Part shown: one piece after another, positions 694 to 30,252 of the stretch
How positions within the stretch are numbered: the first letter of the stretch is position 1
Layout of the letters: each line of letters begins with the position of its first letter
DNA from: Candidatus Saccharimonadales bacterium
GTDB lineage: Bacteria; Patescibacteriota; Saccharimonadia; Saccharimonadales; CAIOMD01
Direction: 5' to 3'
Length of the DNA stretch: 64,000 nt
Assembly (NCBI GenBank): GCA_046350635.1
Contig: JAXLZY010000001.1
Location: forward strand, 11,897 to 75,896
Notes under the pieces: model-generated
What the model saw: the letters and a program-made list of their open reading frames with translations, nothing else
Told to the model about the DNA's origin: nothing
Database searches by the model: none
Program-made: the position numbers and the translations under genes

Positions 694-2676
694 ATGTTCC
701 GCAAATTAGTTTCCAACCTACCCTTCCAACCAGCCTTACTGGGCCAGGTTTCTTTTTATTTGCACCGCATGCGTCAAGAACAATCACTACGACGAATCGG
801 TTTTGCTCTTATGGCAGTGGTGGTTGTACTTCAACTATTTGCCATGTTTTCACCTGCTAAGCCTTCACTTGCTACGAGTTCGGCAGATATTGTCTACGGT
901 GCAAATAGCCGCGCTGATGTACTAACTGCATATCGCAATAATCGCGACCAAATTGGCCACACAGATATACAGGCAATCTTTAATTATTATGGTATTGGTG
1001 CTGATCAAATCTCTAAAGCAGCTTTTGTTCACATTAGCGATGGAGATGGCCACGACTATATCAATACATCACGCAGTACTACCCGCTGGCAGGATACGTT
1101 TGTAAAAATACCGGGTGCATCTGATGGAGGTATATATGAGTTTCCACTTTCGTATTGGCGCCAAGGCCAATACCCAAATGGCTATCCCGCATTAACAGGT
1201 ATGAGTAGTTATGGGTTCCGATTTTGGATTTTACTAAAAGGTTGTGGCAACATTGTCTACGAAAAGGGTGCTAAAAAGCCTAACCTCGACATTGTTAAAA
1301 AACGTACCTCTGGAGCAACAGTTGCCCCAGGTGATACGACTACCTATTCAATAGAATTCAGGAACGCTGGGCTTGCGAATGCAAACGGTGTAACTATAAG
1401 TGATAAGCTTGCACCCGAATTTAACTATGTCAGCTATACGAGCAATGTTGATTTAAACTTCACGCGCAGTGGCCAGCAATTAACCTGGAAGATAAAAAAC
1501 ACTGGCAGTGTTCTTGCGCCTTCGTCGCGGTGGTTTACGATAACCGTTAAAGTAAAAGCTAAAGATATATCGGCTAATACCCAAAAGGTCTGTAATGCAA
1601 GCTCTATTGATGCCACAAACGCAGGTGCTGCTAGCTCTAGCGGTACTGATAGCGCCCATTGTGTGACTATTAGTAAACCCTTATGCCCCGGAACGGGCTT
1701 ACCGATTCCACCAGGTGGGGTCACTAAATGTAGCGTTACCTGCCCTGATGGCTCAACCGTTTCATACGATAAAACCTGTCCGGTACCACAACTAAGTTGC
1801 CAGTCACTACAGGTAGCTGCGGAACCAGCCTGGAATAGCCGTAAGTACGAAACCACTATTGTCATGCAAAAAGGCGCTGTCGCTAAACAAATTGATTATT
1901 ACGTAAACAACACTAAGGTGGGTTCACAGCCAATGACTACCGGCTCGACCAGCCAGTTCTTTACCTACACTTTCCCTAAAGAGGGAGATTACAAAGTACG
2001 GGCAGATCTCATTGCCACCACTGGCACCGTACAGCCAGGTGCAAACTGTGCCGTCACCGAAACAATCACTAAGCCGACCCAACCGACCCCTCGTATTACT
2101 ACTGATAAAGCAGTTACGAACCTAACGCAAAAAATTGCTGACGCCAACGGGACCACCGCCCACGCGGGTGATGTACTTCGCTATACCTTAACTATTGCCA
2201 ATACTGGCGATGCCCCAGCCACCGACTTTGCCCTTAGCGGTGAATACGGCGAAAATATCGCTGACATTATGGAGTATGCAGATCTTACCGATAAGGGTGA
2301 TGCCACCTTGAATGAAACAACAAAAGTATTAACCTGGGCACCGGTTACGATCCCAGCTGGCGGGCAGGTACAGAAAGTCTTTAGCGTCACTATAAAAAAC
2401 CCAATTCCAGCTACACCTACTTCTGTTTCTAATCCGTTATCGTTTGACTACGTTATGCACAATAAATACGGCCGAGACGTGAGCATTAACCTCGACAAAC
2501 CAGCCAACAAGATAATCGAACAAACGGCTACCGCCCTTCCAGAAACCGGCCCCGGCACTGGTATGTTCGTGACCGCAGTTATTGTTATGGTTGTTGGCTA
2601 CTTCTTTTACCGAAGTCGACTCCTTACAAAGGAACTTGAACTTGTACACCACGAATATAGCGCAGGAGGCTTATAG
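694..2676 (+). CDS. Secreted cell-surface protein with DUF11-like repeats and a C-terminal LPXTG (LPETG) sortase anchor
   Basis: Track ORF 646..2676; the likely start is MFRKLV at 694. It has a signal anchor, DUF11-like segments (GDTTTYSIEFRNAG.., GDVLRYTLTIANTGD..), a Cys-rich linker, and LPETG followed by a hydrophobic helix and a basic tail. Confidence 0.75.
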   Translation: MFRKLVSNLPFQPALLGQVSFYLHRMRQEQSLRRIGFALMAVVVVLQLFAMFSPAKPSLATSSADIVYGANSRADVLTAYRNNRDQIGHTDIQAIFNYYGIGADQISKAAFVHISDGDGHDYINTSRSTTRWQDTFVKIPGASDGGIYEFPLSYWRQGQYPNGYPALTGMSSYGFRFWILLKGCGNIVYEKGAKKPNLDIVKKRTSGATVAPGDTTTYSIEFRNAGLANANGVTISDKLAPEFNYVSYTSNVDLNFTRSGQQLTWKIKNTGSVLAPSSRWFTITVKVKAKDISANTQKVCNASSIDATNAGAASSSGTDSAHCVTISKPLCPGTGLPIPPGGVTKCSVTCPDGSTVSYDKTCPVPQLSCQSLQVAAEPAWNSRKYETTIVMQKGAVAKQIDYYVNNTKVGSQPMTTGSTSQFFTYTFPKEGDYKVRADLIATTGTVQPGANCAVTETITKPTQPTPRITTDKAVTNLTQKIADANGTTAHAGDVLRYTLTIANTGDAPATDFALSGEYGENIADIMEYADLTDKGDATLNETTKVLTWAPVTIPAGGQVQKVFSVTIKNPIPATPTSVSNPLSFDYVMHNKYGRDVSINLDKPANKIIEQTATALPETGPGTGMFVTAVIVMVVGYFFYRSRLLTKELELVHHEYSAGGL

Positions 2677-2678
2677 AT

Positions 2679-3266
2679 ATGAGTGAGCAACTTCGTTCGC
2701 ACGAACAACACACCTCACCCGAGGCTACAACTGAACATATCGATAGATTAAAAGATATCGAACAAAAAGCTCACGAAGCTCATCATGAACACGCTGAGCA
2801 ACTAGAGGCGATTCGCGCTAAAGTTGAGCACGAAGCCCACTCGGCCGAAGAAGTAAAAGACAAAGAAGAATCAGCTACTGAACGTCAGACACTACACCAT
2901 CACATTACAAAGCGCATCAAAAAAGAACAGTACCAGCAAACCCTTAAGCAGGTGCAATCTCATCTATCGAAGCCAGAGAAACGCTTTAGCAAGGTCATTC
3001 ACCAACCTGTGGTCGAAACGGCCAGCGAAGTTGGGGCCAAAACAATTGCACGCCCCTACAGCATTATTGGTGGTGCCCTATTTGCGATTATTGGTAGTTT
3101 TACGGTGCTTTCAATTGCTAAACACGTTGGTTTTGAAGTACCAAATAGTATCTTCTTTATTTTGTTTGTACTTGGTTACGTAGTGGCGTTATTAGTTGAA
3201 TTTGTGGTGCGTATGATTCGTAAAACGAGTCCAAAACACCGTAAACGCCACACGACTAGCTATTAA
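2679..3266 (+). CDS. Hypothetical membrane protein (His/Glu-rich N-half, two TM helices)
   Basis: Track ORF starting 3 nt after the upstream stop. The N-half is charged and HE-rich and the C-half is hydrophobic. No family recognised. Confidence 0.5.
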   Translation: MSEQLRSHEQHTSPEATTEHIDRLKDIEQKAHEAHHEHAEQLEAIRAKVEHEAHSAEEVKDKEESATERQTLHHHITKRIKKEQYQQTLKQVQSHLSKPEKRFSKVIHQPVVETASEVGAKTIARPYSIIGGALFAIIGSFTVLSIAKHVGFEVPNSIFFILFVLGYVVALLVEFVVRMIRKTSPKHRKRHTTSY

Positions 3267-4500
3267 CCACAGGTAGAGATTGCCACTCAGCGTGATTATA
3301 AGGGCTCACAGATGCCCGTTTACCGCGCCACGACTCATTAAGCATTGCCGTTGCAATATGAGGTCCTAGAGCCCCGTATCGCTTCACAAGGGCATCTATC
3401 GCTACCAGTAAATCCCCATTATTGCCTTTAGATGATAGTAGGCTTAGCTGTTGGACAGTTCGTAGCTCTGGCAGTACTATCATCGCTTTTATGTACGACT
3501 TATCTGATTCAAAAAGCGTATTAAGCACCACATCTGCCGATTGGCTTATTACAAACGTGTCGTCAGTCCATTCACCAAAGGTAATTTCAGTACCCACTCC
3601 CTTGCCGTGAACCTTACCGGGCACTCGGTATCGTATAGAAACATAAGCCCTATCAGCAACAAGCCCTTTTCGGCGCAGCTTTGCGGCTAACTCGGTGCAA
3701 AATACAGCCAAGGCCGCCCTTAATGCCGCTTTATCAGATATCGAAGTCCCAAACGAACGGCTATACATAATTGATTTTTGATGCTTGGGCTTAGCAACAA
3801 CACCTTCAGCCCAGCCCCGCAATTGATATATAAGCTCTTTAGTCGGTGCATCCAAGAGACCAAGTACGGGACTATCGCTACCAATACTCATAAAATCGTA
3901 GGCAGTCTTGATACCACAAACTTCTAGTTTAGGAGCCAGACGCCTGCCAACACCCCATATATCCCGGACTGGTATTCCTTTAAGAACCTTTTCGGTTTCC
4001 TGACTTTCGATATCTATAACACAAACACCGTCACGCTTTTTTGCCACATGTGAGGCTAGCTTAGCCAAGGCATGCGATGATCCAATACCGATGCTAACGG
4101 GGAGGCCTGTCCACTTTAAGATAGTCTCCCGAAGCAGTCTCGCCCACTCTGTAGGATTATCAATTTGGTCATCTTTTATAACCAAAAAGGATTCATCTAT
4201 AGAATAAACTTCAATTGATTCTGCAGGGATAGCCCTTAGAATACCTTGCATACGCTTTGCAAAATGTCGGTACAGTAAAAAATTAGCCGATAACACCTCT
4301 GCCCCAATGCTATCAAGCATTGCCTTACATTCGTGATACGGCTGACCCATTTTGACACCCGCCCGCTTAACTTCAGCCGAGCGCGCGACCACACAACCAT
4401 CATTATTAGAAAGTACTGCCACCGGCCTATCAAGAAGTTGCGGTTGCATAACCCTCTCACATGATGCGAAGAAGTTGTCGCAGTCTATTAGCACTACCAT
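3256..4500 (-). CDS. umuC: Y-family translesion DNA polymerase, UmuC-like
   Basis: The N-terminus MVVLIDCDNFFASCERV..PVAVLSNNDGCVVARSAEVKRAGVKMG parallels the E. coli UmuC N-terminus. It lies directly downstream of umuD. Confidence 0.85.
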   Translation of the reverse strand: MVVLIDCDNFFASCERVMQPQLLDRPVAVLSNNDGCVVARSAEVKRAGVKMGQPYHECKAMLDSIGAEVLSANFLLYRHFAKRMQGILRAIPAESIEVYSIDESFLVIKDDQIDNPTEWARLLRETILKWTGLPVSIGIGSSHALAKLASHVAKKRDGVCVIDIESQETEKVLKGIPVRDIWGVGRRLAPKLEVCGIKTAYDFMSIGSDSPVLGLLDAPTKELIYQLRGWAEGVVAKPKHQKSIMYSRSFGTSISDKAALRAALAVFCTELAAKLRRKGLVADRAYVSIRYRVPGKVHGKGVGTEITFGEWTDDTFVISQSADVVLNTLFESDKSYIKAMIVLPELRTVQQLSLLSSKGNNGDLLVAIDALVKRYGALGPHIATAMLNESWRGKRASVSPYNHAEWQSLPVVNS

Positions 4501-4509
4501 GACTTAAGT

Positions 4510-4932
4510 TTAGTGCGCAGAGCGTAGCGCGCGCAACGTAAAGGTAACAACGCCCCAAATAGTCAGTTCATCACCATCATTCATGGTTATATCAGCAAAT
4601 CGTTTATTCTCCGCCTGGAGCCGTACCAATGTCCCCTTTTTGCGCAACCGTTTTAAGGTATATGCGCCATTCAAGACTGCTACCACAATATCGCCATCTT
4701 GCGCCTGTAATGACTTGTCTATAACAACAATGTCACCATCATAAATACCCGCATCTTGCATAGAATTGCCCGTAACACGCATAAAAAACGTCGCAGCAGG
4801 GTTACGGACTAACAGCTGGTTTGTATCAAGCGGCGAGGTATCTAGCTCTTCGCCCGGTGACGGAAACCCAGCCTGCACTAGATTAGTTAAAAACGTTGGC
4901 AAATTCTCACCGCTACTGCTGTTCGTCGGCAT
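4510..4932 (-). CDS. umuD: S24 self-cleaving peptidase, UmuD-like
   Basis: LVQAGFPSP (Ala-Gly cleavage site), GNSM (Ser nucleophile) and TLKRL (Lys) form the LexA/UmuD signature. It is paired with umuC. Confidence 0.8.
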   Translation of the reverse strand: MPTNSSSGENLPTFLTNLVQAGFPSPGEELDTSPLDTNQLLVRNPAATFFMRVTGNSMQDAGIYDGDIVVIDKSLQAQDGDIVVAVLNGAYTLKRLRKKGTLVRLQAENKRFADITMNDGDELTIWGVVTFTLRALRSAH

Positions 4933-7876
4933 TCTTAAAGTTGCCTTCTTTATCGATATAGATTGTATCGTTATGCTCTAAAACATCGCTCGATTTCTTT
5001 GGGGCTAGCGTGGGTGTTGACGTAGCTACGGCTGGCTGTGGGCTTTCTTGGCTTGGTTCGCCTTTTACAAGGCTCTGCCGAAGTTCGTCAGCAATTGAAT
5101 TAACCTCTTTAGCATCAATCGAACCACTCGAAATGTTTTGGCTTCCCTGGGCATCTTCTGCATAGCTCACCGAATTGCCACTGCCTAACTTAACATCTAC
5201 CGGCGAAACAGGTTGAACAGATGGCTTAGGTTCTGGTGCCGATTGAGGGTTTGTGGTTGTAGTAGGAGTTACGGGTTTGGCTGTCGGTGTTGCCGATTTA
5301 CGCTTTGCAAGCCACTCGTCAAGGAAGGACGATTGGCCACCGGCTGGACTTGGTTTTGGTGCACCCGCCCCCGGAGGACCAAATGGTGATGATGCGCCAC
5401 CAAACGCGGGTTTTGGCGCTGGTTCAGTTTTTAGTCGTTTAAATATCTCAGCCTCTACCTGTGCTTTTGGTCGGCCATGTTTAGCTGCAGATAATTGCTT
5501 AAGCGCACCTTCAAGTTGTTTGTTTGCGTTACCGAGCACCGGCAAATCAGCCATGCTAAATGGTTGCGTTGGAACACCGCCAATCAACATACGCACTACC
5601 GCATTATAGTTTGGTAACTGTTGCAGATCATCGACGTCAAAAATTGGTCTAAATTGTTTTTCTAGCACTTCAGCATCGGCTGTACCAACTCGGTGCGCAA
5701 TAACAGTACCGATGTTACCAAACACCGCATCGCGTATCTCTTCGCTCAGCTGACTAATAAACTGGTTGGCAACAATCAGGTTAAGGCGGTATTTACGAGC
5801 TTCGCTTAAGATTGTCGCAAACGAATCAGTCGAGAAGTTTTGGAACTCGTCAACGTACAAGCTAAAGTCTTTGCGCTCTGATTCTGGCATGTTAGCCCGA
5901 CTCATGGCAGCAGCCTGGAACTTCATCACAAAAATCATACCAAGTAGCTTAGAGTTAAGTTCCCCAGTACGACCCTTACTTAGGTTGACGATCAATATCT
6001 TGTTGTTGTCCATGATGTCACGCAAATCAAACGAGCTCTTTGTTTGGCCAATAATATTGCGCATCATCTCGTTCGACATAAAGGCGCCAAACTTACTGAC
6101 AACCCAGGCCGTGACTTCACCCGCTTCATTCGAACGCTGAGAGTTTGGATACTCTTTTGTCCAAAAGTCGAGCACCATTTGGTCAGTAACATACTTTAAC
6201 TTTTGTTTCATGAAGTCGTTGTCAACTAACAGCTTTGGAATATCAATAAAGGTGCCTCCGTTGGGGTCTGACATTAATAACAGTGCACAGTTACGAAAAA
6301 TGTGTTCATAGCGTGGGCCAATAATGCCCTGGCGCTGTGGGTCGTATAACTTATAGAGCATTGATATGACCTCTTGAATCAAGAAGTCCTTTTGTTCTGG
6401 CAGGCTGTACTCAAACAGATTAAGCCCAAGCGGATAATCCATATCGGATGGGCAGAAGTATATAACATCTTCTGTTCTCTCTTTGGGCACCATGCCTAGT
6501 AGTTTCTCAGCCGTATCACCGTGCGGATCAACAAATGCAAAGCCTCGCCCCTCAATCATGTCTTGTAGGGCTAGATTCTCTAGGAACGTTGACTTACCAG
6601 TACCTGTCTGACCGACAACGTACATGTGTCGACGGCGGTCGTTCTCGCTTAAACGAATCGGCTTTTTAGTGCCACGAAACACGTTATAACCAAGCAATAA
6701 ACCGCTATCAAGTAGGTTACGTGGCCCATCAACTTGCTTAGAAGACTGTCGTTCAAGCTGGGTTGTTGGAATATTTGATGCATCTGGGAAGTGAAATATT
6801 GTTGCAAGTTCTACAGCATTTAGAATACTACTGTTCTGTTCCGGCGGAAAGAACCGTAGAATATAAGCCGTCACAAAGCTTTCTATATCCTTAGCAGGAA
6901 TAAACTTAAAACCATTCTTACCCGGTGAATCAAACAACGAGAACGTTGCAACGATGTTCCCAAGTATAGCCTGAGAACGTTGTGAAATGTTCGACGATGC
7001 TACAACCCTAATAAGAACTTCATAGCCTGGCTGCCTTGTTTTATCTTCTATAGATTCTGCGACCGACTGCTCAAGACTGGTGCCTGGCTTCTCGGTCTTC
7101 TCGCCAACCTCCTTCTCTTTTGCCTCTGGTGGTTTAACGGGAGCAATAAATATTTGTTTAAGCCACCAAAAGGTTAAATCGGCTCCTTTTCGGCTCTTCT
7201 TACCTTCACGTAACCTGTTTGCTTCGGCAGTAGCGGTCTTCGTCCAGCCTTCGGTAGCTGGGCGTAGGAGTATCTGAATACCGGCTCCATCTTCTTTATC
7301 TAGATTGGATAACGAGTTAAGTAATGACTGCATCGTATCCCGCTTTAGGTCATGGAATGTTGCTATTGGATATGCGAACTGCTCTTTTAAGACAAGTTCA
7401 CCACCTGTAGTGCCACTTAATTTACCGACAGGACTAAAGATGTTATGCTCTGCTACTTCTTCGAGCCGGGCATTTGGGTAGGCACTTAGTACAGCTTGTT
7501 CGACGACTGACACAAGTGCAATTGGAACCGCAGAATAAAAGTAAACGAGGCCTTTATGAGCAACAATCTCAAAGCTAATATGCCTTTGACCATAAAACTT
7601 ACTCCTAAATCCCTTTTGGGCCGTACTCGCAATGATGTTATACAGTACTTGTGCTTTCGAGATGTTTTCGTCAGCCACATCACGTGCATCACGACCCTCG
7701 CTGACGACATCATCACTCATGGGCGGTAAGTGAATTAAGAGCGGAACCATCTTAAGGCCACGCTCATAGTTCTTGGCCTCACGTAGTAATTTTCGGGTTC
7801 GCCACAACAAGAAAAAGGCAAGCAAAAAGAGCGCTAAAAATATAATTGCAAATACGCTGAGAAGCGTTGAATTCAT
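4913..7876 (-). CDS. Membrane-anchored VirD4/TraG/TraD-like (type IV coupling protein family) P-loop ATPase with a low-complexity C-tail
   Basis: N-terminal TM helix, Walker A GQTGTGKS, Walker B-like LYVDEFQNF, and the ARKYRLNLIVANQ motif typical of coupling ATPases. The last ~250 aa are Pro/Ala/Thr/Ser-rich. The stop overlaps the umuD start by 20 nt. Confidence 0.65.
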   Translation of the reverse strand: MNSTLLSVFAIIFLALFLLAFFLLWRTRKLLREAKNYERGLKMVPLLIHLPPMSDDVVSEGRDARDVADENISKAQVLYNIIASTAQKGFRSKFYGQRHISFEIVAHKGLVYFYSAVPIALVSVVEQAVLSAYPNARLEEVAEHNIFSPVGKLSGTTGGELVLKEQFAYPIATFHDLKRDTMQSLLNSLSNLDKEDGAGIQILLRPATEGWTKTATAEANRLREGKKSRKGADLTFWWLKQIFIAPVKPPEAKEKEVGEKTEKPGTSLEQSVAESIEDKTRQPGYEVLIRVVASSNISQRSQAILGNIVATFSLFDSPGKNGFKFIPAKDIESFVTAYILRFFPPEQNSSILNAVELATIFHFPDASNIPTTQLERQSSKQVDGPRNLLDSGLLLGYNVFRGTKKPIRLSENDRRRHMYVVGQTGTGKSTFLENLALQDMIEGRGFAFVDPHGDTAEKLLGMVPKERTEDVIYFCPSDMDYPLGLNLFEYSLPEQKDFLIQEVISMLYKLYDPQRQGIIGPRYEHIFRNCALLLMSDPNGGTFIDIPKLLVDNDFMKQKLKYVTDQMVLDFWTKEYPNSQRSNEAGEVTAWVVSKFGAFMSNEMMRNIIGQTKSSFDLRDIMDNNKILIVNLSKGRTGELNSKLLGMIFVMKFQAAAMSRANMPESERKDFSLYVDEFQNFSTDSFATILSEARKYRLNLIVANQFISQLSEEIRDAVFGNIGTVIAHRVGTADAEVLEKQFRPIFDVDDLQQLPNYNAVVRMLIGGVPTQPFSMADLPVLGNANKQLEGALKQLSAAKHGRPKAQVEAEIFKRLKTEPAPKPAFGGASSPFGPPGAGAPKPSPAGGQSSFLDEWLAKRKSATPTAKPVTPTTTTNPQSAPEPKPSVQPVSPVDVKLGSGNSVSYAEDAQGSQNISSGSIDAKEVNSIADELRQSLVKGEPSQESPQPAVATSTPTLAPKKSSDVLEHNDTIYIDKEGNFKNADEQQ

Positions 7877-12551: not shown

Positions 12552-12587
12552 AAAAAAACACCTGCTTCATAGCAGGTGTTTTTTATT
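12552..12587. terminator. Bidirectional rho-independent terminator (rplT / rnpB)
   Basis: AAAAAAACACCTGCT-TCAT-AGCAGGTGTTTTTTATT. A and T runs on both sides allow it to serve both convergent transcripts. Confidence 0.7.
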
Positions 12588-12590
12588 GCC

Positions 12591-12930
12591 AGACCACCCG
12601 TAAGCCGGGTTCTGTTTTATCTGGCCATCTATCTAGGCTTGCGTATTGCTACGAAGCTCGAGCGGTAACAACGCGAACTCTGGCGGGCAGCCATCTGCAC
12701 TAGGCAGAAATGAGTCCACTCCTTGCAGCCGACAGGGTTTACCTCTTTACCGAGTCACCCCGGTAAACTGTGGGCTTTTACCCCACTCGTTTCACCCTTA
12801 CCCCATTTATAACGGGGCGGTATCGTTTCTGTGGCACTTTCCCTAGGATTACTCCTGGTTGTCGTTAACAACTGTCGCGCCCTATGCTGCCCGGACTTTC
12901 CTCCCACAGGGGGCGGCCAGTCGATGGTCT
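12591..12930 (-). ncRNA. rnpB: RNase P RNA (bacterial type A-like)
   Basis: The reverse complement contains the universal blocks GGAGGAAAGTCCGGGC, AGGGTGAAA and ACAGAACCCGGCTTA. The 5' AGACCATCG pairs with the 3' CGGGTGGTCT (P1). Ends are approximate. Confidence 0.85.
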
Positions 12931-12940
12931 AGCTCGTCTA

Positions 12941-13748: not shown

Positions 13749-13772
13749 TGGTCGGGGTGACAGGACTTGAAC
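13749..13772 (-). repeat. 24-nt exact copy of the tRNA-Pro 3' end (T-loop to CCA)
   Basis: tggtcggggtgacaggacttgaac occurs at 13749-13772 and again at 13850-13873, inside the intact tRNA. Confidence 0.9.
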
Positions 13773-13849
13773 TTACGGCTATCGCCGCAAGACTGCGCAT
13801 TAAATAACTTCGGTCGCAGGTTCAAGTGATTTGTCTTGTTAAATCTATG

Positions 13850-25087: not shown

Positions 25088-25108
25088 TGGAGCAGAAGAT
25101 GGGACTCG
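25088..25108 (-). repeat. 21-nt copy (1 mismatch) of the tRNA-Thr 3' end
   Basis: tggagcAgaagatgggactcg compared with tggagcCgaagatgggactcg at 25242-25262. Confidence 0.85.
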
Positions 25109-25241
25109 GTCACCTCTGGCGACCCTGTAGTAACAGCTTTGAAAACATAGTTTTCAAGTGTCAACTACCTTGCAACCCGCCACTGGCGGGTTTCGCCCAC
25201 GACTTGGCAGATCATGGCTTCTCGCCCATCTTAATCTACCT

Positions 25242-25382: not shown

Positions 25383-25411
25383 ATCTTGGCGGGCCCGACC
25401 GGATTCGAACC
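25383..25411 (-). repeat. 29-nt exact copy of the tRNA-Asp 3' end plus 4 nt of downstream flank
   Basis: atcttggcgggcccgaccggattcgaacc occurs at 25383-25411 and at 25578-25606. Confidence 0.9.
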
Positions 25412-25538
25412 CGAGAAGTGCCTGTGGCACTTTGAGTTCACGCACACTGATAACAATGATTATTTAAATTCCCTATTATGATTAGATTCCACTGATTGAT
25501 AGGCGTTAAGGTTCGAATCTTGCCGAGCTTGCTCGGTA

Positions 25539-25578
25539 TGCAACTAAAAAAACACCCCTTGGGGTGTTTTTAGTTGCA
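25539..25578. terminator. Palindromic terminator abutting the tRNA-Asp CCA end
   Basis: TGCAACTAAAAAAACACCCC-TT-GGGGTGTTTTTAGTTGCA. Same sequence family as the tRNA-Val terminator. Confidence 0.65.
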
Positions 25579-25581
25579 TCT

Positions 25582-27356: not shown

Positions 27357-27429
27357 AACCTTAGTGGTTATTGTACGCGCCTTTACGCATTTCGTGAACA
27401 ACTAACAGTGGTATACTAGTGTGGAGTTT

Positions 27430-27480
27430 GGTCCGGTAGTTCAATGGATAGAACACCACCGTCCTAAGGTGGGTGTTGGG
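27430..27480 (+). repeat. 51-nt exact copy of the tRNA-Arg 5' part (positions 1-51)
   Basis: ggtccggtagttcaatggatagaacaccaccgtcctaaggtgggtgttggg is identical to 27607-27657. Confidence 0.9.
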
Positions 27481-27606
27481 TGAAATCTGCCGGTGGCAGA
27501 TTGCAAGGCAACCTTCCGGAGCAAGCTAGCTTGCTACAGTGAAGTTGCGGGCCCGCCAAAGGTGGGTCGATTTAGAATCGAACCCCTGTAGTACAATGTA
27601 ATTCAT

Positions 27607-27682
27607 GGTCCGGTAGTTCAATGGATAGAACACCACCGTCCTAAGGTGGGTGTTGGGGGTTCGATTCCCTCCCGGGCCACCA
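27607..27682 (+). tRNA. tRNA-Arg (CCT)
   Basis: Hand fold: GGTCCGG/CCGGGCC acceptor, anticodon arm CCACC-GTCCTAA-GGTGG, T-arm GGGGG-TTCGATT-CCCTC, encoded CCA. Confidence 0.85.
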
Positions 27683-27687
27683 TGATT

Positions 27688-27710
27688 ATCCCGCATGCGG
27701 GATTTTTATT
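27688..27710 (+). terminator. Terminator after the intact tRNA-Arg
   Basis: ATCCCGC-AT-GCGGGAT followed by TTTTATT. Confidence 0.6.
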
Positions 27711-27802
27711 TGGGAATCGAACGACAATTGCCGGTGGCAATTGGCCGCCCTTAAGCCCCGAAAGGGGTTTGCTTGCCAAAACTAAGTTTGTTTTGGCGCA
27801 AA

Positions 27803-27826
27803 GGTTGATTCCCTCCCGGGCCACCA
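27803..27826 (+). repeat. 24-nt copy of the tRNA-Arg 3' end (T-loop to CCA, one deletion)
   Basis: ggttgattccctcccgggccacca compared with ggttcgattccctcccgggccacca at 27658-27682. Confidence 0.9.
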
Positions 27827-27832
27827 AACTAA

Positions 27833-27863
27833 AACCGACCCTTTCGGGCCGGTTATTTTTATT
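27833..27863. terminator. Terminator hairpin shared by the tRNA-Arg locus and convergent ndk
   Basis: AACCGACCC-TTTC-GGGCCGGTT followed by ATTTTTATTT. Confidence 0.55.
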
Positions 27864-28371
27864 TCTTCGGTACCTTACCAAGCACGGTTGTTTCGTGAGG
27901 TAAGTTATAATCGTACAGATCAGACTTATCAAACCATAATTCAATTTCTTGCGCGGCTTCTTCTGGGTTACCGGATGCATGAATAATATTTGGTAATGTT
28001 CCGCCACGACTATTAGTGTAATTACGAGTTACGTGGGTATAATCACCGCGAATCGTACCAGGAGCTGAGTCTTTTGGGTCTGTGGTTCCAACCATTTTAC
28101 GAACATGAGCTACTGCCTCTACACCTTCAAGTACCACCGCAACAACGGGTGCTTCTGTCATTTGTGAAAGGGTAATATTGTAGATTTCCTCACCCCAACG
28201 GCTAATAAGCTGACTAATACCTTCGTAATGTGCATGAAAGTGCTCTTTCGTTGGCGCAACCATCTTCATACCAACAATTTTTAAGCCTGCTCGTTCAAAA
28301 CGCTGCAAGACATCACCGACAATACCGCGCTGTACGGCGTCCGGCTTTAATACAATTAATGTTCGTTCCAT
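27859..28371 (-). CDS. ndk: Nucleoside diphosphate kinase
   Basis: MERTLIVLKPDAVQRG..GTIRGDY.., with NIIHASG as the active-site His motif. The C-terminus is about 20 aa longer than usual. Confidence 0.9.
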   Translation of the reverse strand: MERTLIVLKPDAVQRGIVGDVLQRFERAGLKIVGMKMVAPTKEHFHAHYEGISQLISRWGEEIYNITLSQMTEAPVVAVVLEGVEAVAHVRKMVGTTDPKDSAPGTIRGDYTHVTRNYTNSRGGTLPNIIHASGNPEEAAQEIELWFDKSDLYDYNLPHETTVLGKVPKK

Positions 28372-29301: not shown

Positions 29302-30252
29302 GTGGTATTTACAGAGGTAAGGTCGTACAATAATAACGTGAAAGCAGCCCAAGCAATCAGTGAATACCTTGATTACCTTGCGATAGAGCAAAACCGTTCG
29401 AAGCGAACGATTGCCAACTATAATCATTATCTAACCCGTCTACTCGATTACGCTGGTGATATTACCGTAGCAGACATTACCCCTGAGCTGGTTCGCAAAT
29501 GGCGTTTGTGGCTGCACGAACTTGGTTCTGATCGCTCAGACGAGCTTAGCAAGGCAACGCAGAATTATCACCTTATTGCACTGCGTAGCTTTTTGAAATT
29601 TTGCCATAAACGAAACATCCCCGCACTTGCCTCTGACCAAATTGAGCTCGCACGAGTTAAGCGAAGCCAGGTTACCTTTTTAGATTCCGACGAACTCCAT
29701 CGATTAATTACACAACCCAATACCACCGAAGAATCTGGTCTACGAGACCGTGCTATATTAGAGCTCTTATTTAGCGGCGGCTTACGTGTATCCGAACTTG
29801 TGGGTTTAGATAGAACGCACATTAACCTAGAGCGTCGCGAGTTCATGGTTCGTGGTAAGGGGCAAAAGGACCGACCAATCTTTGTCAGCCAAGAGGCGGC
29901 CGATTGGTTAAAGCTATATCTAGAAAAGCGTACCGACAACCTCCCTGCGCTCTTTATAAGCTACAGCGGACGCCACCAGGCCACAACGAGTGGCAATTAC
30001 CGCCGATTAACCCCACGGAGCGTACAGCGCATGATTTCACAGTACGCGCGCCTTGCAGGCATTACAAAGCACGTAAGCCCCCATACAATGCGCCACAGCT
30101 TTGCCACCGACCTACTTATGAACGGTGCCGATTTACGCAGCGTACAAGCAATGCTCGGCCACAGCAACATTGCCACAACTCAAATATATACGCACGTCAC
30201 AGATCCACACCTTAAAAGCGTACACGAACGCTTTCACGGCAAAGGCGCCTAG
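29302..30252 (+). CDS. Tyrosine recombinase, XerC/XerD family
   Basis: SAM-like N-domain (YLDYLAIEQNRSKRTIANY) and catalytic residues in ..GLRVSEL.., HTMRHSFAT and LGHSNIATTQIYTHV. The exact start is uncertain (alternative GTG at 29338). Confidence 0.8.
   Translation: MVFTEVRSYNNNVKAAQAISEYLDYLAIEQNRSKRTIANYNHYLTRLLDYAGDITVADITPELVRKWRLWLHELGSDRSDELSKATQNYHLIALRSFLKFCHKRNIPALASDQIELARVKRSQVTFLDSDELHRLITQPNTTEESGLRDRAILELLFSGGLRVSELVGLDRTHINLERREFMVRGKGQKDRPIFVSQEAADWLKLYLEKRTDNLPALFISYSGRHQATTSGNYRRLTPRSVQRMISQYARLAGITKHVSPHTMRHSFATDLLMNGADLRSVQAMLGHSNIATTQIYTHVTDPHLKSVHERFHGKGA

Follow-up and report, generated by a model that had tools for sequence, protein, structure and literature searches.

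Within the window (the whole 64-kb stretch of DNA that was analysed) there is a single tRNA-Arg(CCT) gene, located at 27607-27682 on the plus strand. It is recognized by ARAGORN and by the Rfam tRNA model (RF00005, 60.9 bits), encodes its CCA end and is presumably functional. The gene lies between a bPH-domain gene and ndk, which is followed by uppP and a gene for a Xer-type tyrosine recombinase (29302-30252). A partial copy of the tRNA is found on either side of it, on the same strand. The 5' fragment (27430-27480) is an exact copy of tRNA positions 1-51 and comprises the 5' strand of the acceptor stem, the D arm, the anticodon arm, the variable loop and the first three G of the T stem. An earlier note on this DNA had reported the 51-nt copy; the repeat finder extends it by one upstream T to an exact direct repeat of 52 nt (27429-27480 = 27606-27657). 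The 3' fragment (27803-27826) corresponds to positions 53-76 minus C56. Here, the note's claim of a 24-nt copy holds for the last 20 nt, which are exact and include the CCA (27807-27826 = 27663-27682), whereas the full 24 nt can be aligned only if the T-loop base C56 is counted as deleted (GGTT-GATT versus GGTTCGATT). The spacing between the repeats is 126 nt on the 5' side and 124 nt on the 3' side. Both 18-20-mers are without further occurrence in the 64-kb window, and a chance origin of the tRNA copies is thus excluded.

When 27430-27480 and 27803-27826 are joined artificially, the product matches the tRNA with 75/76 identities and is called as tRNA-Arg(CCT) by ARAGORN, in agreement with the note's statement that the outer pieces make up a complete gene. 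The pieces pass as a tRNA in ARAGORN only after such joining. By itself the 5' piece reaches 19.1 bits with the tRNA model (threshold 29 bits) and the 3' piece is not detected with Rfam, so that the middle copy is the only one that scores, as the note had anticipated. The 5' fragment is regarded as a non-functional copy because its ortholog in L040, one of the relatives described below, has diverged.

The locus has two sets of expression signals. An extended -10 box, TGgTATACT (27409-27417, plus strand), was read from the sequence and appears to be native to the locus. In L014, a relative with an empty site, it lies directly 5' of the single tRNA (TGTTATACT); in L005 and L040 it lies 5' of the 5' fragment. 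In the window this native box would now drive the 5' fragment and the spacer behind it (E1). A second -10 box, TACAAT (27592-27597, plus strand), was likewise read from the sequence; it is located 10 nt 5' of the intact tRNA and probably acts as its promoter. A similar box (TACAAT, TAAAAT or TATAAT) is present at the equivalent place in most 5' modules and is absent or unclear in a few (L022, L041). Both terminators described in the note were called by the terminator scan. Terminator 1 (27688-27710, plus strand) consists of a hairpin at 27688-27703 and a T run, and is missing from L005, where the native terminator lies directly 3' of the tRNA. That native terminator is terminator 2 (27833-27865), found directly 3' of the 3' fragment in L040. 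Its hairpin (27833-27854) was called on the minus strand, and a T run follows on the plus strand as well; thus, it looks bidirectional and would also end ndk. The working tRNA is in this way surrounded by insertion-like extra DNA with its own promoter and terminator; the note had described the insert and its terminator.

The spacer E1 contains a core of three hairpins at 27481-27568 on the plus strand (P1 27481-27505, P2 27508-27548, P3 27549-27568), which matches a covariance model of the family (R1) with 105 bits (E = 6e-24). Conserved motifs are GUGA, with which the core starts, GCAAG, which lies between P1 and P2, and CCRGUGG at the apex of P1. The core is followed on the same strand (27567-27586) by a remnant of the T loop, TCGATTT, and by an inverted copy of the T loop and the 5' strand of the T stem (GAATCGAACCCC). 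Over 12 nt, 27575-27586 is perfectly complementary to 27656-27667 of the intact tRNA. In the predicted fold the E1 domain is closed by pairing of this inverted T-arm copy with GGG(U) at 27478-27481, and the same closing layout recurs in most 5' modules. Folding of E1 exceeds that of shuffled sequences (z = -2.7). Among 114 distinct members, pairing is present in 96.5% of the pair cells, and both sides have changed in 28 of 33 pairs. The number of compensatory cells is 872 as opposed to 233 in shuffles, none of which reaches the observed value, and slid controls collapse. A G.U pair in P3 is conserved in 101 of the 114 members, which indicates that it is the sense strand of E1 that folds.

The spacer on the 3' side, E2, is built on the same plan. 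Its core (27712-27813, plus strand; model R2, 102 bits) has three hairpins (27725-27743, 27754-27769 and 27775-27797) inside a closing helix, in which an inverted T-arm copy, GGGAATCGAAC (27712-27722), pairs with GGTT-GATTCCC (27803-27813). The inverted piece is perfectly complementary to 27659-27669 of the intact tRNA over 11 nt. Folding relative to shuffles is stronger than for E1 (z = -3.0 to -3.9). The note was therefore right both about structured spacers and about inverted T-arm-like fragments within them. The E2 family has 18 members at 12 or more tRNA species; covariation is seen in the closing helix and the first hairpin, and the inverted arm follows whichever T-loop variant is present locally.

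Further copies of both families, which the note had suggested searching for, are common beside other tRNA genes. At least 165 distinct E1 cores were found at 30 tRNA species; the loci were gathered through E1 and E2 motifs, and the counts are biased towards these two families. The P3 motif adjoins tRNA-Arg, Glu, Gly, Ser, Gln, Val and others, and the P1 motif occurs in at least 120 genomes, almost all of them Saccharibacteria among the matches listed. In 57 cases the core lies in a 5' fragment and the intact cognate tRNA follows downstream; in 38 it lies in a 3' fragment and that tRNA precedes it upstream. Orientation follows the strand of the neighbouring tRNA in 128 of 132 cores (97% sense). 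The 5' fragments begin at tRNA position +1 and break at loop or junction positions (16, 21-24, 36, 45 and 49-53). Other positions of cores are the D arm, the stretch behind the anticodon and the interior of another core. Within the window 4 of the 6 tRNA genes bear modules. A second E1-family module is located downstream of tRNA-Thr(CGT) on the minus strand (25088-25241; sequence, 79 bits with model R1, fold z = -4.1), and consists of a decayed inverted T arm, a copy of the variable loop and T stem, an E1 core (25200-25103) and a 3' fragment (25107-25088).

The gene order bPH-tRNA-ndk-uppP-xer is conserved among the window, L005, L014 and L040. L014 represents the empty-site state that the note had proposed looking for, with a single tRNA-Arg and neither unit, whereas the window and L040 have both E1 and E2. 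The site is half filled in L005, which is the closest relative (its flanking genes encode proteins of about 93% identity). Here, the order is 5' fragment, E1, tRNA and native terminator, with neither E2 nor a 3' fragment; in the same genome E2 is found at tRNA-Glu and tRNA-Val. E1-bearing lineages differ at the 3' side of tRNA-Arg, where they have E2 (window, L040), unrelated inserts (L002/L033, L011) or nothing (L005, L031). The E1 module itself has been kept at tRNA-Arg in lineages that share only about 60% identity in the flanking proteins. A search for the corresponding joints in four public DNA metagenomes gave no empty or excised alleles of the tRNA-Arg locus.

Several features of the families point to movement between genes. 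In 50 cases the core most closely related to a given E1 core adjoins another tRNA species, compared with 8 cases in which the species is the same; identity reaches 96% between the core of a Gln 5' module and that of a Lys 3' module. Insertions of one core into another are located at the T-stem-like P3, and whole modules form tandem arrays at three loci (L002, L064, L098). In recent 3' modules the repeat spans the T loop through the entire terminator, over 49 to 65 nt or more. Nested copies, tandem arrays, presence or absence among relatives, and near-identical cores at different tRNAs argue for non-autonomous mobile elements. We therefore prefer, with a probability of about 0.5, the reading that one working tRNA-Arg(CCT) lies between two independent tRNA-flank modules, and that E1 and E2 are non-autonomous mobile elements of Saccharibacteria.

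According to this proposal, a module would consist of a redundant partial tRNA copy, an inverted local T arm pairing with it, and a non-coding three-hairpin core of about 90-100 nt situated at the T-stem/T-loop boundary of the partial copy (..GG/GUGA..core../(U)CGAWUCC, with slashes at the boundaries). In the 5' module (27430-27606), the core would belong to the E1 family and be accompanied by a new -10 box serving the real gene. In the 3' module (27683-27826), an E2-family core would come with a new terminator and with the 3' end that was displaced. The point of entry might be tRNA T-arm sequence, through a recombination event in which part of the gene becomes duplicated, comparable to insertion of a small circle or a folded single strand. 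Modules would persist only where an intact gene copy stays alongside, and would be co-transcribed with the tRNA. Their sense strand would adopt a closed junction of several helices, and precise loss could occur through the flanking direct repeats. The inverted T-arm copy is a local, tRNA-specific sequence and as such is predicted by no standard transposition or integrase scheme; it may have arisen by template switching at hairpins or by long-term selection for pairing.

Evidence of transcription comes from assembled metatranscriptome contigs. These cover the 5' fragment, E1 and the tRNA at a depth of about 30 (the contigs give neither strand nor transcript ends, and DNA carry-over is possible), and one run also covers the tRNA's 3' end, terminator 1, E2 and the 3' fragment. 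Depth on the ndk side is 0. On this basis the modules are regarded as transcribed. Candidate enzymes for movement could be the large serine recombinases encoded next to several such tRNAs, a reverse transcriptase, or a Xer-type recombinase of the host that acts on a folded site. In about 7 loci a gene for a large serine recombinase adjoins a module-bearing tRNA at its 3' end, other loci have fragments of such genes nearby, and a 5.3-kb island (L120) ends in a P3-like hairpin directly before a displaced 3' fragment. No enzyme, excised form or autonomous parent element of the modules was found in the genomes, contigs and viral collection searched. The viral collection contained no E1 or E2 core (scans for the P3 and P1 motifs gave nothing, or chance matches within coding sequence), and relatives of the serine recombinases among viral contigs were limited to two N-terminal partial matches with no readable attP. 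The Xer-type recombinase near tRNA-Arg was considered as a module integrase and rejected, being syntenic and 89% identical in a relative with an empty site.

MITEs, Rickettsia palindromic elements and Correia/NEMIS elements are small non-autonomous palindromic elements of reduced bacterial genomes. The modules resemble them in size (about 100 nt), in being non-coding and stably folded, and in their many dispersed copies per genome (at least 165 E1 and 18 E2 cores overall). Co-transcription with host genes, promoter elements, nested copies and a small symbiont-type genome are further points of likeness. By contrast, the inverted repeat that closes a module comes from the local tRNA and not from the element, no fixed terminal repeats or short target-site duplications were seen (direct repeats measure 20-65 nt or more), and the target is a tRNA arm. 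The modules also differ in a long partial gene duplication per insertion, extensive RNA-type covariation and the lack of a known parent transposon.

In the attP(+) hairpin of CTX phage, two att copies in inverted orientation are separated by about 90 nt, and the attC sites of integrons have a variable terminal structure. The modules may be likened to such folded single-strand att sites in their strand specificity and in having inverted site copies some 40-100 nt apart, which could fold into a mimic of the target duplex (the closing helix) with a branched insert. Unlike in those sites, the target is the T arm and not dif or attI, and the intervening core is strongly conserved. An integron attC site proper was rejected, since the modules do not match its core-site consensus. 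An IS200/IS605- or TnpB-type element was likewise rejected, with no constant target motif beyond RG/G and no transposase.

In common with tRNA islands, prophages and cis-mobilisable elements (including PMC3293823), there is a displaced direct-repeat fragment beside an intact tRNA (20 nt at the 3' side, 52 nt at the 5' side), with the replaced part of the gene supplied. The break points in the T loop and the use of the same tRNA genes by serine recombinase islands in these genomes are also shared. However, the modules are only 126-145 nt in length and lack an integrase. As the note had stated, none is adjacent: the 126 and 124 nt between the repeats contain no such ORF, and the recombinase at 29302-30252 lies outside. 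Moreover, the modules have a covarying, three-hairpin RNA-like core and an inverted site copy beside the direct one; cores are located in D arms and anticodon loops too, and one inside another.

Archaeal non-canonical tRNA introns and split tRNAs offer a parallel in structured inserts in D arm, anticodon and T arm that apparently move between genes, and in separated tRNA pieces. Here, the host is bacterial, and truncated, interrupted copies lie beside an intact gene, so that splicing is not needed. An intact gene accompanies every classified interrupted copy, the copies are missing either the 3' strand of the acceptor stem or the 5' half, and among the classified loci no core is found in a sole, complete tRNA gene copy. 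Joining in trans of a split tRNA from two modules was discarded, most loci having a single module. A group I intron is not indicated either, given the T-stem position, the truncated copy and the lack of any such family near its gathering threshold (Rfam, E up to 10). Rfam 15 (4227 models, including small ribozymes and tmRNA) detected only tRNA in 27380-27900 at E up to 10, and tRNA-free core loci gave no match to other RNA families in Rfam. A tmRNA gene as host of the tRNA-free cores was rejected: ARAGORN gives no tmRNA, with the core kept or removed.

The rejoining of the outer pieces with 75/76 identities into an ARAGORN-valid tRNA fits the proposal of the earlier note that a single nested insert of 322 nt (E1, a replacement tRNA, a terminator and E2) landed in the T arm and split a resident tRNA-Arg. 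The island in L120 also illustrates that larger elements can lie between a tRNA and its displaced 3' end. Such an insert is nevertheless very unlikely. E1 occurs without E2 in L005, which could be accommodated by later loss of one module via the flanking repeats, but E1-bearing lineages have unrelated 3' units at the same locus. Among 180 tRNA genes, 5' and 3' units co-occur 11 times, compared with about 13 expected by chance, and E1 alone and E2 alone are each found beside many other tRNA species. The outer pieces furthermore overlap in the T loop: with the remnant TCGATT 3' of E1 (27567-27573) the upstream piece extends to about position 60, and position 53 is already the start of the downstream piece (27803-27809). 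Break points are mismatched in other doubly flanked tRNAs as well (in L112 the 5' piece runs to position 45 and the 3' piece from 44). The note's alternative, a tandem triplication of the tRNA with decayed outer copies, appears extremely improbable. Three collinear tRNA-derived pieces are indeed present, and recent 3' modules resemble direct-inverted-direct repeats of the 3' part of the tRNA, but the outer pieces are exact, and the intervening DNA is unrelated to tRNA and belongs to conserved families found at other tRNAs. None of the relatives has three full genes, and one has a single gene.

Long-lasting compensatory evolution and the invariant single-stranded GUGA, GCAAG and CCAGUGG are equally expected of RNAs that are useful to the host. 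On this account, which we regard as possible but unlikely, the modules are structured RNAs, only rarely copied between loci, that aid or regulate transcription, processing or stability of tRNA, or act as decoys of tRNA arms. The very strong covariation and invariant junction and loop nucleotides would then be explained, as would transcription of the modules and their supplying a promoter or terminator for the real gene. Retention of the E1 module at tRNA-Arg next to flanking proteins of only about 60% identity, and occupation of most tRNA genes in a streamlined genome of roughly 1 Mb, are in line with a function. It is harder to reconcile with close relatives that lack modules without visible compensation (L014 has neither, L005 has no E2), with module presence that varies among genomes for one tRNA species, or with many decayed, truncated, nested and tandem copies and near-identical cores at different tRNAs; nor did the search give a consistent partner gene. 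A rather doubtful alternative is that the modules are scars or miniatures of integrase-borne islands or prophages, perhaps moved in trans, with the tRNA fragments as attL/attR and E1 and E2 as element ends. A tRNA followed by an insert and a displaced 3' fragment, and a 5' fragment followed by an insert and the tRNA, are both classical signatures of such events, and an archaeal 5'-fragment case involves a 1.8-kb recombinase element (PMC3293823). Several tRNAs that bear modules overlap at their 3' end with a gene for a large serine recombinase. The 3' fragment of L120 starts in the T loop behind its P3-like hairpin, the intact tRNA and neighbouring fragment are different alleles in L028 and L001, and in L037 the end of a terminase-like ORF runs into E1. 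Yet no full-length element ending in an E1 or E2 core was found, the island end in L120 is without P1 and P2, and the cores are missing from the viral collection. RNA-type covariation with conserved G.U pairs is unexpected of recombinase arm sites, cores occur also in D arms, after the anticodon and within other cores, and repeats of 49-65 nt or more that include terminators exceed att identities.

In addition to the preferred reading of independent mobile modules, there is a bolder one, which we put forward tentatively and think improbable. E1, and perhaps E2, might represent a new class of catalytic or otherwise active RNA: a small retro-mobile element, intron-like or equipped with a ribozyme, whose target is the tRNA T arm at GG/GGUYC. 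It would be transcribed from tRNA promoters, cut at the invariant 5' GUGA boundary and copied back together with tRNA pieces. R2 elements, which carry a 5' ribozyme and reside inside rRNA genes, provide an analogue. The idea is compatible with sense-strand folding, 97% sense copies, invariant junction nucleotides and 5' fragments that start at +1.

A search of the literature on Saccharibacteria/CPR and tRNA-linked elements gave no description of the modules and one useful analogue, archaeal tRNA disruption (PMC3293823). The E1 and E2 families, located around most Saccharibacteria tRNA genes, thus seem to be undescribed. One practical consequence is that modules break metagenome assemblies at tRNA loci and give rise to false tRNA fragments in annotation; they are also usable as markers for strain-level comparison. 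In Saccharibacteria, whose genomes measure about 1 Mb, tRNA genes are single-copy, and yet most of them seem to be wrapped in modules. If the modules are mobile, they would represent a so far unrecorded kind of small element that resides at tRNA genes, leaves them working and influences their promoters and terminators. If they are functional, they would constitute two abundant new classes of structured RNA in a major uncultivated lineage.

The window contains six tRNA genes and one RNase P RNA gene. The latter (class A; 12585-12932, minus strand; 245.8 bits) is ordinary, as is a lysM-TM7 RNA at a related locus (L107, 5587-5735, minus strand). The intact tRNA-Arg(CCT) (27607-27682) lies in a neighbourhood of a bPH-domain gene, ndk, uppP and a gene for an Xer-type tyrosine recombinase. 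The earlier note proposed that a 322-nt insert carrying this gene as a replacement had split a resident tRNA-Arg(CCT) in the T-arm. The partial 5' copy on which this rested is real, being exact over 52 nt (27429-27480 and 27606-27657). Of the 24-nt copy of the 3' end, 20 nt are exact (27807-27826 and 27663-27682), but the full 24 would need one base, C56, that is absent. The outer pieces do rejoin, with 75/76 identities, into a product that ARAGORN accepts as a tRNA. By the Rfam tRNA threshold the middle copy alone qualifies (the 5' piece reaches 19.1 bits), and the two terminator-like hairpins and two inverted T-arm copies, both perfect, were detected. In many loci (e.g., L050, L112 and window 27676-27712) the terminators trailing tRNAs are long hairpins, whose outer stem consists of the encoded CCA end and trailer pairing with a downstream ..TTGGT...

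The 51-nt tRNA piece is found in 16 Saccharibacteria (TM7) genomes, the window sequence occurs in activated-sludge metagenomes, and the order bPH - tRNA-Arg - ndk - uppP - xer is conserved. An empty site with a single tRNA-Arg exists among the relatives: L014 (~86% identity to the window in flanking proteins) has a native promoter, one tRNA and a native terminator. L005 (~93%) carries the 5' fragment and E1 (the three-hairpin core at 27481-27568 in the window) upstream, followed downstream by the native terminator. L040 (~89%) has a diverged 5' fragment and E1 upstream, and E2 (the downstream core, 27712-27813 in the window) with compensatory changes. At ~60% identity, L002, L033 and L011 combine E1-type units (tandem in L002) with unrelated 3' inserts, and L031 has an E1-type unit and nothing downstream. 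Relatives differ in their combinations of units, which implies that the one upstream and the one downstream have had separate histories. The Xer gene belongs to neither, since it also occurs at the empty site, with 89% identity. A single nested self-insertion does not readily account for units that vary separately, with E1 and no E2 in L005 and neither in L014, and we regard the nested insert as very improbable. The locus is very probably one tRNA gene with two independent modules from two widespread families, rather than a nested self-insertion or a decayed triplication. At two other loci (L028 1217-1430, L001 6281-6470) the intact tRNA-Arg(CCT) and the adjoining tRNA-Arg(CCT) fragment are clearly distinct alleles (GTCCCCG-type versus GGTCCGG-type), and the resident gene appears to have been replaced by a foreign copy.

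Both cores recur beside other tRNA genes. The third-hairpin motif of E1 adjoins tRNA-Glu, Gly, Ser, Gln, Val and others, each time with the 5' part of that same tRNA before it and the intact gene after it, while the first-hairpin motif occurs in >120 genomes among the matches listed, nearly all Saccharibacteria. A census by profile search and ARAGORN over 163 loci and the window yielded 165 distinct E1 cores at 30 tRNA species. Of the 165, 57 are embedded in a 5' fragment, the cognate intact tRNA following <260 nt downstream, and 38 in a 3' fragment that has its cognate tRNA upstream; the other 70 are mostly contig-end, diverged or nested. The 5' fragments break off after position 16, 21-24, 36, 45 or, most commonly, 49-53, always at ..RG|GUGA, and the 3' fragments restart at about position 58, with T54 absent after the core in every case. 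Core and tRNA share a strand in 128/132 cores with a tRNA within 300 nt. Clear exceptions are two antisense cores at tRNA-Phe(GAA) (L058 4118-4207, L078 187-275), where an inverted T arm directly abuts the core 5' end; another two cores on the opposite strand (L125, L129) are 163-244 nt away from a tRNA-Gly. Some E1 cores lack a nearby tRNA (L138 3890-4510, minus strand; L092, L053, L125, L051) and have a conserved motif, GAGGCGATAGCCGAGCTTTAGGGGGAGG, ahead of them. The L138 core lies at one end of an ORF-free stretch of ~600 nt, for which Rfam gave no match even at E = 1 and ARAGORN no tmRNA; this may be an unknown long structured RNA. An E1 core with a truncated first hairpin, beside tRNA-Val(CAC) in L037 (1-215), is entered by the end of a terminase-like ORF, and this may be a prophage junction within a module.

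The fold of E1 is conserved. RNAalifold of 26 hand-picked copies gives three hairpins (P1, P2, P3), with compensatory changes at 25/33 pairs. Among 114 distinct copies, in an alignment fitted to the model that somewhat inflates the pairing figures, standard pairs make up 96.5% of pair cells and both-side changes occur at 28/33 pairs; an independent MAFFT alignment gave the same picture. Compensatory cells number 872, against 233 in shuffles (0/500 reach the observed value), and pairing falls to 27-51% when partners are slid by 1-3 columns. One P3 G.U pair persists in 101/114 copies, so that the sense strand is the folding one, as RNA or single-stranded DNA. The single-stranded motifs GUGA and GCAAG and the P1 apex CCAGUGG are near-invariant. 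An Rfam search with E1 returned no family match.

E2 is a second family that shares its design with E1. It adjoins tRNA-Leu, Gln, Lys, Glu, Val, Ser, Ala, Tyr and Arg, downstream in every case, in the order tRNA, terminator, inverted T-arm copy, core and GGTCGAWYCC.. 3' fragment. The inverted arm varies in step with the T-loop variant of its locus, and there is covariation in the first hairpin. In the L005 genome E2 is found at tRNA-Glu and tRNA-Val and is absent at tRNA-Arg.

A 5' module comprises the native promoter, tRNA positions 1 to ~53, core, T-loop remnant, inverted T loop with the T-stem 5' strand, -10 box and intact tRNA. A 3' module comprises tRNA-CCA, a long terminator hairpin including the CCA end, an inverted copy of local positions ~65 to 44 and a short loop, then positions 44-53, core, positions 57-76 and a second terminator. 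The inverted copy holds tRNA-specific variable-loop sequence and must therefore have originated in that gene. Young 3' modules have a direct repeat that spans the whole terminator and further (49 to 65 or more nt); the inverted piece is then interpretable as a decayed antisense copy of the entire 3' portion, which makes the layout direct-inverted-direct. In each of three modules folded from the window, the tRNA-derived strand and its inverted copy form a closing helix around a multi-hairpin junction (z scores -2.7, -3.0 and -4.1).

A second E1-family core in the window (25200-25103, within 25088-25241, minus strand; 79 bits) occupies a tRNA-Thr(CGT) 3' fragment, with the intact tRNA-Thr on one side and tRNA-Gly(CCC) on the other. 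As there is no terminator between these two genes, a tRNA operon transcript probably includes it. Two minus-strand units have inserts that look like additional module families. Behind tRNA-Asp(GTC) (25387-25581) come an inverted T-arm copy, an insert of ~110 nt and a 3' fragment of that tRNA, the repeat reaching 4 nt beyond CCA; behind tRNA-Pro(GGG) (13749-13849) come the same parts around a 37-nt insert, which carries a GGCGATAGCC motif that recurs at other loci.

Several observations point to mobility. The nearest relative of a core belongs to another tRNA species in 50 cases and to the same species in 8 (35 unclassified), and the top identity, 96%, links a tRNA-Gln 5' module and a tRNA-Lys 3' module from separate genomes. 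In eight loci (L106, L116, L155, L059, L094, L071, L118, L133) a second E1 sits in the 5' strand of the first core's P3, at a T-stem-like GG|GGUCG. Tandem arrays of whole modules exist, and there are precise presence/absence differences between close relatives. Both modules occur at one tRNA in 11/180 cases (~13 expected), i.e. at chance level.

Clustering of ORFs near cores identified genes for large serine recombinases (Resolvase, Recombinase and zinc-ribbon domains). At ~7 loci these genes run convergently to the 3' end of module-bearing tRNAs, often overlapping it, and further fragments lie near others. In L120 an island of ~5.3 kb (1052-6460) separates tRNA-Gly(GCC), which also has a 5' module with the E1 core in the D arm, from a displaced 3' fragment (6440) whose start falls within the T loop. 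Its large serine recombinase gene (1105-2673, minus strand) overlaps the tRNA 3' end, and a P3-like hairpin (GTCCGCC-CATC-GGTGGAGTC) immediately precedes the displaced fragment, a hint that P3 resembles an attachment half-site. The island and the recombinase genes at tRNA 3' ends indicate that T-loop-targeting recombinases are active at these tRNA genes. The cores might be miniature remnants of recombinase-borne islands; this survey found no full-length element with a complete E1 or E2 core, and we consider such an origin improbable.

It is slightly less doubtful, and still unlikely, that the cores are RNAs useful to the host. Contigs from three wastewater metatranscriptomes (assembler depth ~30, contig level, without strand or ends) span the 5' fragment, E1 and the tRNA start; they bear L005-type substitutions and have depth 0 on the ndk side. 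In a fourth, contigs, likewise without strand or ends, also span the tRNA 3' end, terminator 1 (27688-27710), E2 and the 3' fragment with zero mismatches. Neither core has a model in Rfam 15, and a full-text literature search found no description of them. That they form a new class of active RNA seems about as unlikely as a use to the host. The closest published analogue is the archaeal arrangement of 5' fragment, recombinase element and tRNA (PMC3293823), and small non-autonomous elements or integrative remnants at tRNA genes are rated the nearest known kind.

Several origins of the local inverted copy would fit the data: a small circle inserted by homology, a single-strand attachment site that folds like that of CTX phage or like attC, template switches at the hairpins of the T arm and the terminator, or an RNA-mediated route. 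We suggest, with a probability of about 0.5, that the cores are mobile but non-autonomous, inserting at T-arm sequence with duplication of part of the gene and persisting only where an intact copy stands next to them.
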